Below the pieces are notes generated by a model, which saw only the letters and a program-made list of their open reading frames with translations, had not been told where the DNA came from and made no database searches. From assembly GCA_951406725.2 (NCBI GenBank), contig OX597824.1, positions 39,122,001 through 39,186,000 of the forward strand: 64,000 nt of DNA, given 5' to 3'. A program made the translations under genes and the position numbers. The DNA comes from Octopus vulgaris (Eukaryota). Below are positions 741 through 64,000 of this stretch, in pieces. Within the stretch, counting starts at the first letter, position 1, and the number at the start of each line of letters is the position of its first letter.

Positions 741-844
741 ATATATATAAATAAATACACAAACACACACACACACACACACACACACACACACACACAC
801 ACACACACACACACACACACACACACACATACATATATATATAT
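741..844. repeat. (TA)n/(CA)n microsatellite
   Basis: Direct reading; representative of dozens of such tracts in the window. Confidence 0.95.
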
Positions 845-1323
845 TGAAGAAACGGGAATCAAGAAGGAGTACGGTTGGAACATTTATCTATTATTCGTTA
901 CAATTGTTTCGACGCAACGTAGTTCTCCAAGAACTCAGGTATTTGATTATGCAACTGTTTATTTGCATAATGCGATCTAGTTTGTTTCCTCAGGTAATAT
1001 ACGAGTGTTGTCTCCGTTAGTTTATGATCGTCGACTTCTGGACCATCTCCTCTGTTCGTCCTGGTTTGAATTTAGTAGCGGCTGATAGATCCGCTTTAGT
1101 AGACGCTAATATATTCAAACCACGATGGACAGAGGAGATGGCCTTGAAGTCGACGATTTCAAAGTAACAGAGACAACACGCGTATATCGTCTGAGAAAAC
1201 ACAACTAGGTCTCATTATGCAAACAAACAGTTGCATAATCAAATACTTGTATTCTTGGAGAACTACGTTGCGTCAAATTGTAGCGAATAATAAATAAATG
1301 TCTAACCTTATCTCTTCTTCAAT
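843..1323. repeat. Imperfect ~480-bp palindrome with decayed hammerhead motifs in both arms
   Basis: Arms are reverse complements around ~1090 (e.g. atcgtcgacttc..tggtttgaat vs attcaaacca..gaagtcgacgat); minus strand has CTGAGGA (993-987) ... GAAAC-AATT-GTA (910-899). Confidence 0.8.
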
Positions 1324-2297
1324 TTTTATATTCACACATGATGAATGCCCAAATTTAAACTAGGAAATATGTAATAATACTACCGATAGTACTGCGTAAT
1401 TCTGAAGATGGATGAGGTTTATACTGTACTTTACCACATTCCTAACGGAATATAACGTAACTATATATATATATAATGTGTGTGTGAGTGTCGTTGAATT
1501 CGGGTTGGAGTGTATCGTATCATTTATATACATAGAGCAAAATTAGAAATTACGCAATCCACACTTGCTACCAATGTGTAATTATTAAACCTAATGTTGC
1601 TGAGGAGAACATGTGGTAGTAGAAATAGGTACCAGAGTAATGACTTGAGCTTGTAGTGATTAGCTGATGGAGGGAAGCTGTATGATTGTCCGGAAAAATA
1701 TAAAGATAAATTACAAGCTTTACAAAGGTCAGATTAGAGTGAAACACATGTGTGAAATAGACGTGGGTATCTTCTTAGCGAAAATTTTATTGTTTCTTCC
1801 TAATTCTTGATTTTTCTATTATGTGCCCTAGTGTCACCTCGTAACCATTCATCTATACTACGCCTACACAACGCAATACACATACACAACACAACACACA
1901 CACATACACACACACATGCATACACATACATAATACATAATGCAGTGTAATATAACACTATATATATGTACATGAGCTTGCGCGCGTGTGTAAGAGGAAT
2001 GGCGACAATGATACATACGACGCTCAAAAGAGAGAAAAGAATAAAACATGGAAATGCCTAATAACGACCGGTATCAAGTGATCAAAGTTAACCAAAATAA
2101 ATATAACATATATAGAATGTCCATAAGTTCAACAAGATATAAAAACATACTGAAATTCATATGAACTTACAGTTAAATAAATTTGACACTATCATTTGAA
2201 AAATATTTATCGTAGATCTATGTCGGTGTTTAGACCGCGGTTGTGTAACAAAAGTTTCGACGTATCATGCAGTAGATATATTAGGCGCACCAAAAAG

Positions 2298-2560
2298 TTA
2301 TGCCATATTTTCAAGCGAGTAGCCTGACGTCATACTAGAAGAGAATCTAGTCCAAAGTATCGGGGATTTATCCCGGAGGCCAAATAAACTATCAGCCGCA
2401 GAGCAAGGTGACTTCAAGCAGATGGAGAAAGTGTTTACAGAAGACAAGTGTGGGAGACATCGTGCAACATAATAATGATAAGCCATATTCAGTGAAGATA
2501 ACCTTAGGAAAGGGAAATTCATTAGGTTGGAGATCTCTTGAACACCCTTCTTACTCTTAG
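2298..2560 (-). pseudogene. Possible decayed Penelope-like RT C-terminal (thumb) fragment
   Basis: NFPFL...MAY..Y resembles the NFPFL.SNIP...AYGVY motif of some PLE RTs; very degenerate. Confidence 0.3.
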
Positions 2561-59169: not shown

Positions 59170-62100
59170 ATTTAACAAGAATTGTATTAGCATTTATACA
59201 TTTAGGCAGGTTTAAAGGAGTGGTGGTGGGGGACTTTTTGGGGGTAGGCATAGCGCAAAATATCATACTTGGGGGAGTGGTCAAGGAGTCAGTGGTAAGT
59301 TAGATGAAAGAATAGATAAATAAAAAAATAAAAAAATAAAAAATAAAAAAATAAAATAAAAAAATAAAAAAATAAAATAAAAAATATAAAAAATATATAT
59401 AAAAAAATATATATATAAAATATATATATAAAAATATATATATAAAAAAAGGGGGGATAGAGTTATAGGTAAATAAGGAGATTCTCACTTATACCTATAC
59501 ACACATGTATACGTATCTACACACACATACATACATACACACATATATATACACACACATATATATATATATATATATATATATATACATACCTACACAT
59601 ACACACATACATACATACAAATATACATATACATATATATATATATACAATCCAATACAGGCCCATTCCTAATTTTAATTTTATTATCTTCATTTATTAC
59701 TTTTGTTATCTTTGATCGCTAGGGCTAAGAATCCTGGCAATGGCTGCATGTCCATTTGTCTGTCTACTAGAAGGCAAGTACTCATTCCCGCACGCACACT
59801 CATTAGCACGTACATTCACCCATTCGTACACTCATACACATACACGTACGCACGCGTTATATTCATACATACAATCATCTACATACGTTCACGTATATAC
59901 ACATACGTACTCGTACCTACAGATTCGTGTCTACACTTTAGGAGGCTAGTCTATACATATACACCAATAAATATATATATATATATATATACCCGCATGT
60001 ACATACACACACACACATATATACTCCTACATACAGATACATACCTATATATTTATATATATATATATATATATATATATATATATATACACATACATAC
60101 ACATACACACATACATATACACACACATACATACACATATATATACATACACAAACATATATACACACATATATATATACATACACACATACACACATAC
60201 ATACGTATACATACATACATACATCCATACATCCATACTTACATGCATTTATACGCATACACACACCCATCTATATATATGTATATATATATATATATAT
60301 ATACACACTCACACATACATATACAAATCTACGCACACACATACATACATACACGTATACGCATACACGCACATACACATATACATGCGTACCCATACAC
60401 GTGCACACACGCACGCGCATCCATATATATACACACACACACACATATATACACGTGTGCAAGCATACATACATACTCATACGCGCACACATACTTACAA
60501 ATACATATATGCACACACTTACACACATATATATACATACACATATACATGCATACATACATATATGCATGCATACACACACGCACCATATATATATATA
60601 TATATATATATATATATATATATATATACACACATATACATACATAGATATATATACACATACATACACATACACATACATACACACATATACACATATA
60701 TATATATATATATATATATACACATATACACATACATACATACACATATACATACATATACATACACACACACTTACATATATACATATACATACACATA
60801 CCCATACATACACATGCATATACTTATATCACTACATACTCACATATATAAACATATATACATATACACACATACACATATACATGTACATACACATACG
60901 TATGCATATATACATATATACATATATATACACATATATATATATATATATACACACACACACACACACATACATATACACATATACATGTATACATACG
61001 CAAAAATGATACACATATATACACATACACACACACAGACAGATGCATATACATACATATATATATATAAACTACATATCTATATAAATACATACATAAT
61101 ACACATATACACACACATATATATACATTCATGCATATACATATACAAGTATACATACACATACATACACACACACGCGCACACATACATATACACACAC
61201 ACATATACAAATACATACATACACACATACACACACACATATATATATATATATATATATACATACATGTACACATATATATATATATATATATATATAT
61301 ATGTATGTGCTTGTATGTGTGTGTGTGTGTATATGTGTATATGTGTTTGTATGTATATGTGTATATATGTATATGCATATGTATGTGTAAATGTATGTGC
61401 TTATGTATGTGTATGTATGTATAAAATATTATATAATTAGGGCTTAGGAAAATAAAATAAATTACTTTGCCACATACTAAACTTTCTAGAAATAGCAGCC
61501 AATAAAGTTTTTTAGCCTCTTCCACTACTTAGAGAATTTTTTTCCCTCTAACATTGTTTACTCAAAATAATAATGGTCCCTTTACATACTGAACACTTGA
61601 TGAAATTGATTAATAACTAATTAACTTTACCCTCCCTTGTTGATATATATATACATATGTATATGTGTACATGTATGTATATATATATATATATATATAT
61701 ATATATATATGTGTGTGTATGTGTGTATGTATGTATTTGTATATATATGTGTGTGTGTATATGTATGTGTGCGCGTGTGTGTGTATGTATGTGTATGTAT
61801 ACTTGTATATGTATATGCATGAATGTATATATATGTGTGTGTATATGTGTATTATGTATGTATTTATATAGATATGTAGTTTATATATATATATGTATGT
61901 ATATGCATCTGTCTGTGTGTGTGTATGTGTATATATGTGTATCATTTTTGCGTATGTATACATGTATATGTGTATATGTATGTGTGTGTGTGTGTGTATA
62001 TATATATATATATATATATGTGTATATATATGTATATATGTATATATGCATACGTATGTGTATGTACATGTATATGTGTATGTGTGTATATGTATATATG

Positions 62101-63818
62101 TTTATATATGTGAGTATGTAGTGATATAAGTATATGCATGTGTATGTATGGGTATGTGTATCAGTGTATATGTATATATGTATGTGTGTGTGTATGTATA
62201 TGTATGTATATGTGTATGTATGTATGTGTATATGTGTATATATATATATATATATATGTATATGTGTATATGTGTGTATGTATGTGTATGTGTATGTATG
62301 TGTATATATATCTATGTATGTATATGTATGTGTATATATATATATATATATATATATATATATATGAGTGCGTGTGTGTATGCATGCATATATGTATGTA
62401 TGCATGTATATGTGTATGTATATATATGTGTGTAAGTGTGTGCATATATGTATTTGTAAGTATGTGTGCGCGTATGAGTATGTATGTATGCTTGCACACG
62501 TGTATATATATGTGTGTGTGTGTGTATATATATGGATGCGCGTGCGTGTGTGCACGTGTATGGGTACGCATGTATATGTGTATGTGCGTGTATGCGTATA
62601 CGTGTATGTATGTATGTGTGTGCGTAGATTTGTATATGTATGTGTGAGTGTGTATATATATATATATATATATATACATATATATAGATGGGTGTGTGTA
62701 TGCGTATAAATGCATGTAAGTATGGATGTATGGATGTATGTATGTATGTATACGTATGTATGTGTGTATGTGTGTATGTATATATATATGTGTGTATATA
62801 TGTTTGTGTATGTATATATATGTGTATGTATGTGTGTGTATATGTATGTGTGTATGTGTATGTATGTGTATATATATATATATATATATATATATATATA
62901 TATAAATATATAGGTATGTATCTGTATGTAGGAGTATATATGTGTGTGTGTGTATGTACATGCGGGTATATATATATATATGTATATTTATTGGTGTATA
63001 TGTATAGACTAGCCTCCTAAAGTGTAGACACGAATCTGTAGGTACGAGTACGTATGTGTATATACGTGAACGTATGTAGATGATTGTATGTATGAATATA
63101 ACGCGTGCGTACGTGTATGTGTATGAGTGTACGAATGGGTGAATGTACGTGCTAATGAGTGTGCGTGCGGGAATGAGTACTTGCCTTCTAGTAGACAGAC
63201 AAATGGACATGCAGCCATTGCCAGGATTCTTAGCCCTAGCGATCAAAGATAACAAAAGTAATAAATGAAGATAATAAAATTAAAATTAGGGAATGGGCCT
63301 GTATTGGATTGTATATATATATATATGTATATGTATATTTGTATGTATGTATGTGTGTATGTGTAGGTATGTATATATATATATATATATATATATATAT
63401 ATGTGTGTGTATATATATGTGTGTATGTATGTATGTGTGTGTAGATACGTATACATGTGTGTATAGGTATAAGTGAGAATCTCCTTATTTACCTATAACT
63501 CTATCCCCCCTTTTTTTATATATATATTTTTATATATATATTTTATATATATATTTTTTTATATATATTTTTTATATTTTTTATTTTTTTATTTTTTTAT
63601 TTTATTTTTTTATTTTTTTATTTTTTTATTTTTTTATTTTTTTATTTTTTTATTTTTTATTTTTTTATTTTTTTATTCTTTCATCTAACTTACCACTGAC
63701 TCCTTGACCACTCCCCCAAGTATGATATTTTGCGCTATGCCTACCCCCAAAAAGTCCCCCACCACCACTCCTTTAAACCTGCCTAAATGTATAAATGCTA
63801 ATACAATTCTTGTTAAAT

Positions 63819-63869
63819 AGCTTCCTGAAGATTTCTCTTGAATGAAACAGTACTAGTCCTGTAGAAGCT
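63819..63869 (+). ncRNA. Type I hammerhead ribozyme
   Basis: Identical motif to 59119-59169 on the opposite strand. Confidence 0.8.
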
Positions 63870-64000
63870 CCTTCTATATAATAAATTAATTTTACTCTGC
63901 TATGTATTGAGTACCTTACTTACTGTGGTTAACCCCGAATCAACCCGGGACCTACATATATATATATATATATATATATATATATATATATATGTATATA

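Follow-up and report, generated by a model that had tools for sequence, protein, structure and literature searches.

Head-to-head hammerhead arms in (TA)n tracts of the Octopus vulgaris genome as probable twin-primed insertions of Penelope-like elements and retrozymes

Eight loci in a 64,000-nucleotide (nt) stretch of the Octopus vulgaris genome (GenBank assembly GCA_951406725.2, contig OX597824.1, forward-strand positions 39,122,001 to 39,186,000; hereafter the window) each consist of two arms with hammerhead ribozyme sequence arranged head to head, the left arm on the minus strand and the right arm on the plus strand. These loci are, in our judgement, probably insertions of Penelope-like elements (PLEs) and retrozymes into (TA)n tracts, in which two truncated copies were laid down head to head when both ends of one cut primed on the same source RNA (twin priming). 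All eight had been listed in an earlier note made from the sequence alone, and reading together with self-alignment of the window confirms their presence and arrangement. The window comes from a 2.8-Gb genome, with 35% G+C and an abundance of microsatellites.

In the proposed process the GIY-YIG domain of a PLE would nick both strands within (TA)n, one reverse transcription would start at each of two sites on the RNA, and the two cDNAs would terminate at varying positions, frequently close together, before end-joining linked them. Retrozymes of the families here called B, C and D would borrow the PLE enzyme in trans, the ribozyme would simply be carried along during insertion, and loci that combine two families would mostly arise when a new insertion entered the TA flank of an older one. 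The PLE machinery and the priming from both ends of a cut that the earlier note envisaged stand as the likeliest mechanism.

Two fixed 3' ends and variants shared between arms

The arms belong to families designated A to H and K, whose relatives were collected as best BLAST matches to the window copies, that is, not as a random draw. Each family has two fixed 3' end points, 62 to about 155 nt apart and both at short TA-like motifs. An arm ending at the 3'-most point of its family is called a tail arm, and one ending at the internal TA-like motif upstream a tail-less arm; the tail is ~70 nt long in family A and ~155 nt in family E. Both arms are present at 26 of 30 loci of family A (two of the other four had 1.5 kb of flank only), 21 of 28 of family B (without L036 and the duplicate L038, and with the window copy included), 13 of 17 of family D (without the duplicates L122 and L123) and 6 of 11 of family E. 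One arm of each end type is found at all 13 two-arm loci of family D including L119, for which the query did not demand a tail (binomial p=2.4e-4), at five of six in family E, the sixth having a shortened tail, at 18 of 21 in family B, at 26 of 26 in family A, where the query forced one tail arm, and at six of the six single-family loci of the window.

Non-CpG variants seen in at least two loci were compared between the arms of one locus and between arms of different loci. Across 22 family B loci, 56 such variants occur in both arms and 9 in one, whereas arms of different loci agree in 9.5% (0 of 2000 permutations). Shared and unshared variants number 12 and 4 in family D, 7 and 0 in family A and 30 and 28 in family C, with 11-14% agreement between arms of different loci and 0 of 1000 permutations for each. 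Private variants are mostly confined to one arm (33 of 39 in B, 25 of 29 in D and 36 of 42 in C; in A five are shared and four are not), and gene conversion is therefore an unlikely cause of the likeness. In family A the lengths of the two arms are correlated (rho 0.46, p=0.02), and their 5' ends lie at most 60 nt apart in 5 of 25 loci compared with 1.5 expected (p=0.007, two ambiguous loci dropped). Because the arms share variants, their lengths correlate and the family A 5' ends lie near each other, two RNAs drawn independently from a pool, as the earlier note had supposed, are disfavoured.

These data also bear on a fold-back process, in which a single cDNA primed at the 3'-most site folds and copies itself, the opposite target end then takes up this copy at the internal TA-like motif, and later central deletions leave some palindromes lopsided. 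We regard this as possible but rather unlikely. It would explain the shared variants and the one-of-each ends, the near-perfect palindromes of family A (spacers of at most 12 nt in 3 of 27 loci, and within 76 nt in 7) and the longer tail arms of that family (16 loci against 6), and self-priming, on an antisense template, is proposed in the passages of PMC3846280 drawn on here. However, the tail-less arm extends past the 5' end of the tail arm in 6 of 27 family A loci, three of them by 0.5-1.7 kb, and in 3 of 6 family E loci, and therefore neither arm contains the other; in family B it is not contained in the tail arm in 5 of 22 loci, and those five still share 13 of 17 variants. Fold-back needs an extra deletion at each of these A, E and B loci, many of which are almost unmutated. 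The tail-less arm is the longer one in 7 of 13 family D loci, contrary to the containment that fold-back predicts, and non-overlapping inversions exist in which the inverted piece derives from just upstream of the other arm (family E locus L193, and the A and C copies at 8824-9485). In addition, the internal site is a true start of reverse transcription in vitro for an Anolis PLE, according to the part of PMC11167929 used here. Junction microhomology, scored by exact match, was not used as evidence: 24 of 39 joints were classed as insertions, many from variants halting the extension, and in the filtered remainder 11 of 15 have at least 2 nt compared with 17% by chance.

Several points weigh against twin priming from a single source RNA. 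Fold-back equally predicts shared variants and one-of-each ends, as well as the longer tail arm seen in 16 of the 27 family A loci, and the lopsided exceptions could be asymmetric deletions at the palindrome centre. One RNA molecule is indistinguishable from two transcripts of one source locus. Concordance in family C is just 52%, family E has no informative site in the variant test, and the test of family A used only 10 of 27 two-arm loci. The family B exceptions to the one-of-each pattern comprise one locus tailed on both arms and two with non-standard ends. Sequence comparison linked none of the retrozymes to a PLE that would move it. Searches of Pfam and PDB with the family A reverse transcriptase (RT) yielded no RT match; its assignment rests on motifs read by eye together with an Atlas GIY-YIG match.

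Targeting of (TA)n tracts and orientation beyond the window

Sixty stretches of 10 kb (600 kb in total) were sampled from six chromosomes, picked regardless of content. They contain 21 hammerhead motifs at a descriptor score of at least 8, compared with one in a single shuffled pass; three of the 21 belong to a repeat with a long stem, possibly not a ribozyme. Within 300 nt, tracts of at least six TA units are present 3' of 12 of the 21 motifs and 5' of 4, against a background of 13% (p=2e-6 and 0.29 respectively). Inverted repeats holding a motif at a score of at least 6 are head to head in 10 of 10 cases (p=0.002), with one motif straddling the centre, and just five adjacent pairs lie within 3 kb, too few for a test of mixed-family pairs. 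Given the excess of motifs, the 3' enrichment of TA and the uniform orientation, head-to-head ribozyme pairs in (TA)n are real and are not confined to this window; the (TA)n target and the head-to-head orientation put forward in the earlier note are supported. Among the relatives, arm 3' ends lie at tracts of at least four TA units in 47 of 49 arms of family B, 23 of 28 of family D and 16 of 17 of family E.

Target-site duplications are not discernible inside TA tracts. No empty site was found: the contigs from four public runs that align to 31900-33040 and 9050-9200 are short, come mainly from paralogues and do not separate alleles. None of those listed bridged the mixed joints and 9116-9163 is without cover, which proves nothing. 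One family D copy lies outside a TA tract, flanked by two copies of a 13-nt sequence and accompanied by 117 nt of flank duplicated in inverted orientation (L110, 1290-1438 and 1997-2113), and at another locus a 1-kb palindrome of flanking DNA abuts the truncated minus arm of a family B insertion (L045, 242-1295).

It is conceivable that the same TA tracts accumulate unrelated insertion events, with orientation and arm likeness arising from chance, selection or gene conversion, but we consider this very improbable as a general account. TA tracts are indeed shared targets, since other elements end there from the other side (~8701-8790 and 32109-32270), and independent pile-up likely explains the locus at 8824-9485. 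Against it, there is no TA between the arms, all ten sampled inverted repeats are head to head, private variants have not been homogenised, and old pairs have arms that have drifted to 71-81% identity by self-alignment; for the single-family loci it is disfavoured. An assembly artefact was also rejected, because dozens of loci use the same fixed end sites and the old pairs are 71-81% alike, as were microRNA (miRNA) hairpins and terminal repeats like those of miniature inverted-repeat transposable elements, the arm 5' ends differing from copy to copy.

The eight loci of the window

A descriptor for type I hammerheads gives nine matches in the window at a score of at least 8, compared with a mean of 0.33 in six block shuffles. 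The hammerheads marked as intact in the list below were found by this descriptor, except that at 32373-32446, which was picked up by a stricter version; the right motif of the locus at 32313-32990 was recognised by eye as having the U3-A8 variant of the core, and a predicted fold was made for it. At the loci starting at 843, 14278, 33752 and 58292 the descriptor gives nothing at a score of at least 7, and these are decayed hammerheads whose relatives elsewhere score up to 10.5. The left arms of 14278 and 33752 retain the 3' half of the ribozyme only, as read by eye. On this point the earlier note, which gave a hammerhead for both arms of each locus, is corrected. Rfam Hammerhead_1 scores 15.2 bits on one motif (E 1.9), under its gathering score, family B has no Rfam hammerhead match, and a whole-window Rfam scan has no hammerhead among the matches listed (150 of 391), which are dominated by microsatellite matches to miRNA models.

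BLAST among arms of different window loci gave no match at E<0.01, and self-alignment shows that six of the eight loci contain a single family, only 8824-9485 and 32313-32990 being mixed. The description of the families as mostly unrelated thus holds between loci and fails within six of the eight. Distances to the family majority range from 0.4% to 9% across the five copies measured, in keeping with the claimed span of ages from near-identical to heavily decayed, and the arms of the locus at 59103-63955 differ by 10 mismatches over 2188 aligned sites. Two boundaries have been corrected: the locus at 843 extends to about 1462, and that at 58292 begins at about 58215, without a TA tract there. 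The parts of the eight loci are as follows.

843..1085, minus strand: family F tail-less arm; decayed hammerhead; 3' end at a CA/TA tract; palindrome 861-1319 at 81%
1086..1462, plus strand: family F tail arm; ~140-nt tail past 1323 to a short TA run; 9% from family majority
8824..9070, minus strand: tail arm of a family A subfamily; 3' end of a coding PLE; intact hammerhead 8916-8953; 0.4% from family majority
9071..9110, plus strand: 40-nt inverted piece of the same A subfamily as 8824..9070; source 26 nt upstream of the tail arm 5' end; overlaps the adjoining family C piece by 3 nt
9108..9132, minus strand: 25-nt inverted family C piece; in the unit sequence it directly adjoins the first bases of the C plus arm
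9128..9168, no strand assigned: 41-nt inverted copy of the local flank 9708-9748, caught at the C junction
9169..9485, plus strand: family C retrozyme tail arm, 468-nt unit; intact hammerhead 9185-9265; 3.2% from family majority
14279..14353, minus strand: family K short tail-less arm; ribozyme 3' half only; inner boundary approximate
14354..14506, plus strand: family K tail arm; decayed hammerhead, core at 14362
25911..26671, minus strand: family B retrozyme tail-less arm, 476-nt unit, 1.6 units; intact hammerheads 26063-26096 and 26538-26571
26657..27170, plus strand: family B tail arm, 1.1 units; intact hammerhead 26862-26895
32313..32536, minus strand: family E tail-less arm; very likely 3' end of a second coding PLE; intact hammerhead 32373-32446; 0.9% from family majority
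32537..32562, minus strand: short inverted family D piece, unit positions about 227-254
32560..32990, plus strand: family D retrozyme tail-less arm, 362-nt unit, 1.2 units; U3-A8 hammerhead near 32786-32815; 1.1% from family majority
33746..33823, minus strand: family H tail-less arm; ribozyme 3' half only; inner boundary approximate
33824..33985, plus strand: family H tail arm; decayed hammerhead
58215..58674, minus strand: family G long tail arm; probable 3' end of an old PLE; decayed hammerhead
58668..58764, plus strand: family G short tail-less arm; decayed hammerhead
59103..61296, minus strand: family A tail-less arm; ~2.2 kb of microsatellite-rich 3' untranslated region (UTR); intact hammerhead 59125-59163
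61297..63955, plus strand: family A tail arm, ~2.66 kb; 70-nt tail; intact hammerhead 63825-63863

At the end of the family D arm lies a perfect 68-nt palindrome (32967-33045): the final 23 nt of the arm recur, inverted, on the far side of the TA run, and 12-17 nt more follow ahead of a long TA tract.

Coding and non-coding families

First-look searches gave candidates, which are not copy numbers, of 878 for family A, 1208 for B, 2425 for C, 3059 for a query dominated by D, 1397 for E, 936 for F, 238 for G, 2940 for H and 1390 for K. Family A is very young, its 40 best matches being 100% identical over 256 nt. Extension of 20 copies by 10 kb reveals a ~3.2-kb microsatellite-rich UTR and then RT and GIY-YIG coding sequence, and locus L241 has an open frame of 718 amino acids with RT-type motifs visible by eye and a C-terminal endonuclease motif. 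The family matches an Atlas GIY-YIG cluster (0.97), and a Cys-rich linker, looked for as a mark of the Neptune clade, is visible between RT and endonuclease. The family A hammerhead is located by the descriptor 92 nt from the 3' end, with stems I-III in the predicted fold. Family E has an open GIY-YIG frame upstream (E 5e-19 to family A), the RT not being reached in the fetched sequence. At L191 (2-1006) this family has a long asparagine- and serine-rich stretch between the end of the RT and the endonuclease, resembling the N-rich inserts of rotifer PLEs described in the portion of PMC3846280 used here.

Coding remnants in the right place and sense lie upstream in other families as well: an endonuclease remnant in 5 of 14 relatives of family G, where it is directly upstream, and in 2 of 14 of family K, and an RT-endonuclease remnant in 1 of 14 of family F; by tblastn, none was found upstream of family H in the relatives checked. 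From sequence, family A is identified as the truncated 3' end of a coding PLE; family E very likely is one too, as family G and family K probably are, and there are weak indications of a coding origin for family F. The earlier statement that none of the loci encodes protein is correct for the letters of the window, which give no tblastn match; it does not extend to A, E and those five relatives of G, which continue upstream into PLE coding sequence.

Families B, C and D are built of tandem units of 476, 468 and 362 nt respectively, each with a type I hammerhead, and at least seven full units of family B stand at one locus. In the loci of B and D, tblastn with two PLE proteins gave no match; one family C locus has a match to a PLE protein, which is read as a neighbouring element. 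These families fit non-coding tandem retrozymes of the non-LTR (long terminal repeat) kind. No RNA dataset carrying family B appears among the matches listed. Small RNAs acting in trans, as in the earlier note, fit only B, C and D and are not the rule, since A, very likely E and probably G and K derive from the 3' part of coding PLEs.

Role of the ribozyme

The predicted cut site of family A is at reference position 4448 and its arms end at ~4470 and 4541; in family E the site is at 1365 and the arms end at 1431 and ~1583. Since the arms of these two single-ribozyme families run through the predicted cut sites, the templates of both were uncleaved there. At the other end, and omitting starts at reference position 1, arm 5' ends fall within 5 nt of the cut in none of 49 arms of family B and 1 of 29 of family D, with chance expectations of 1.1 and 0.9. 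The claim that templates were processed by the ribozyme is thus not supported, and for B and D circles and uncleaved multimers are both compatible. Family D has a hot spot of 5' ends at unit positions 301-310 (~32854-32863 in the window), used by 12 of 29 arms compared with 0.8 expected; it lies 40-50 nt downstream of the ribozyme cut and may mark a transcription start or an RT stop.

Mixed-family loci

Three head-to-head joints combine different families without TA between them, namely 8824-9485, 32313-32990 and L060, the last being the only one of 23 non-window loci whose scanned 5' flank has another family's ribozyme arm attached. At 8824-9485 a family A insertion with its own 40-nt inversion stands beside a family C insertion with its own 25-nt inversion and the 41-nt flank copy. 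The two differ about eightfold in age (1 of 247 sites, 0.4%, for A; 10 of 314, 3.2%, for C), and because of these unequal distances to the family majorities the locus is likely two insertions of different age. At 32313-32990 the tail-less E arm is joined to the tail-less D arm via the short inverted D piece; a deletion between neighbours and a template jump both fit, and the locus could be a true chimera. At L060 (reverse strand, 1-1129) a young retrozyme with a 353-nt unit, in at least three copies 99.7% alike, is fused to a family B arm inside its ribozyme.

These joints bear on the earlier model, in which both ends of a (TA)n break prime on separate small ribozyme-processed RNAs, possibly of unrelated families and possibly as RNA-templated repair. 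The absence of TA between the partners speaks for it, as do their similar ages at 32313-32990 (0.9% and 1.1%) and the near-identical tandem copies on both sides at L060. On the other hand, attachment of a second family is seen in that single flank outside the window, the age gap at 8824-9485 is large, and each of the three joints retains a fragment of the inverted arm that belongs to one of the partners. As the arms of single-family loci also share variants, 5' ends avoid the cut site and several families are coding PLEs, we judge this model improbable in its general form.

A narrower version, that a PLE enzyme seals one (TA)n break with two unrelated RNAs (E and D at 32313-32990 and two retrozymes at L060, each as a single event with one RNA per DNA end or via a template jump), is a doubtful proposition in our estimate. 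If true, the genome itself would directly prove that PLE particles carry retrozymes and that any loaded RNA can serve to bridge a break.

Other features of the window

Further ribozyme-bearing or PLE-like 3' ends occur on the plus strand at 380-600, 8701-8790, 21400-21540, 32050-32270 and 41900-42060, and several stop in a TA tract. Two of them share TA tracts tail to tail with head-to-head loci, and 32109-32225 has a descriptor score of 8.6. A region at 42600-45830 (plus strand) reads by eye as a decayed PLE, with an RT-type motif at ~44260, a ribozyme-like end at ~45700-45730 and a TA tract at 45830; tblastn with the family A and E proteins gave no match there. Palindromes at 18599-19278, 42398-42505 and 48839-49510 have arms 90-96% alike and no descriptor match, the last being made of a repeat resembling short interspersed elements, with a second copy at 36775-37010. 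A dispersed repeat at 49792, 55314 and three sampled loci fits the descriptor only with a stem II of ~90 nt, has no TA close on its 3' side and is probably not a ribozyme. A decayed non-LTR retrotransposon is read by eye at 51500-54900 (minus strand), with an endonuclease-type region at ~52700-52900.

Comparison with known systems

In L1 twin priming the second DNA end primes internally on the same RNA, producing a 5' inversion, and L1 inversions do not duplicate sequence. The loci described here differ in having a fixed second site and arms that, as a rule, overlap for the greater part of their length; locus L193 and the A and C copies at 8824-9485, with an inversion just upstream and no overlap, are L1-like.

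The layout itself is not new, contrary to the earlier presentation of it as a novel system (PMC8557442, PMC3846280, PMC4209133). In the parts of these and the other sources below on which we draw, an inverted copy, a one-sided tail, a 3' ribozyme and a (TA)n target are drawn in PMC8557442 and described in PMC3846280. Endonuclease-containing (EN+) PLEs (Penelope/Poseidon, Neptune, Nematis, Hydra and Naiad) likewise have an inverted 5'-truncated copy adjoining the 5' end, a tail at one end only, a hammerhead near the 3' end, a preference for (TA)n and, as in family A, a single frame with RT and C-terminal GIY-YIG (PMC8557442, PMC3846280). Their tails are 30-40 nt long, whereas those here are about 62-155 nt, and family A differs further in its ~3.2-kb, largely microsatellite 3' UTR. 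Neither the one-of-each rule nor the shared-variant test was found in those parts of PMC8557442 and PMC3846280.

Schistosoma PLEs similarly include dual minimal hammerheads 100-700 bp apart on opposite strands, ascribed to truncated PLEs, and a U3-A8 core variant as in family D; in the part of that paper used here no mechanism, target or retrozyme link is given for the pairs (PMC4209133). Like B, C and D, animal non-LTR retrozymes are non-coding and arrayed in tandem, each unit spanning a few hundred bases and containing a single type I hammerhead (PMC7229834; bioRxiv 10.64898/2026.07.22.740005), although the units of B (476 nt) and C (468 nt) slightly exceed the quoted range of 150-450 bp, and their status as non-autonomous PLE derivatives was proposed in 2026 (bioRxiv 10.64898/2026.07.22.740005). 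The inverted one-tail (TA)n footprint is not described for retrozymes in the main-text portions of PMC7229834 or of that preprint. More broadly, the sharing of this footprint by non-coding retrozymes and the arm-concordance test were not found in the literature, in a search that left most subscription papers and supplements outside.

Closest to the proposed reaction is the purified Anolis Poseidon PAc, which cuts and extends both strands, has an AT-rich target and two RT start sites bounding the tail, and for which ribozyme cleavage is dispensable (PMC11167929). Its start sites lack homology to the target, whereas the ends here are short TA-like motifs beside (TA)n, and in the part of that work used here the inverted arm is not modelled and the two start sites are not tied to inversion. 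The origin of head-to-head inverted PLE copies is debated, self-priming having been proposed (PMC3846280) and an in vitro system called for (PMC8557442). A genome with many young coding and non-coding families that share one footprint offers hundreds of natural reaction products, for which twin priming and fold-back predict differently, as well as structural evidence, independent of sequence similarity, for retrozymes moved by PLE enzymes. The value of the comparison is that it makes this open mechanistic question testable.

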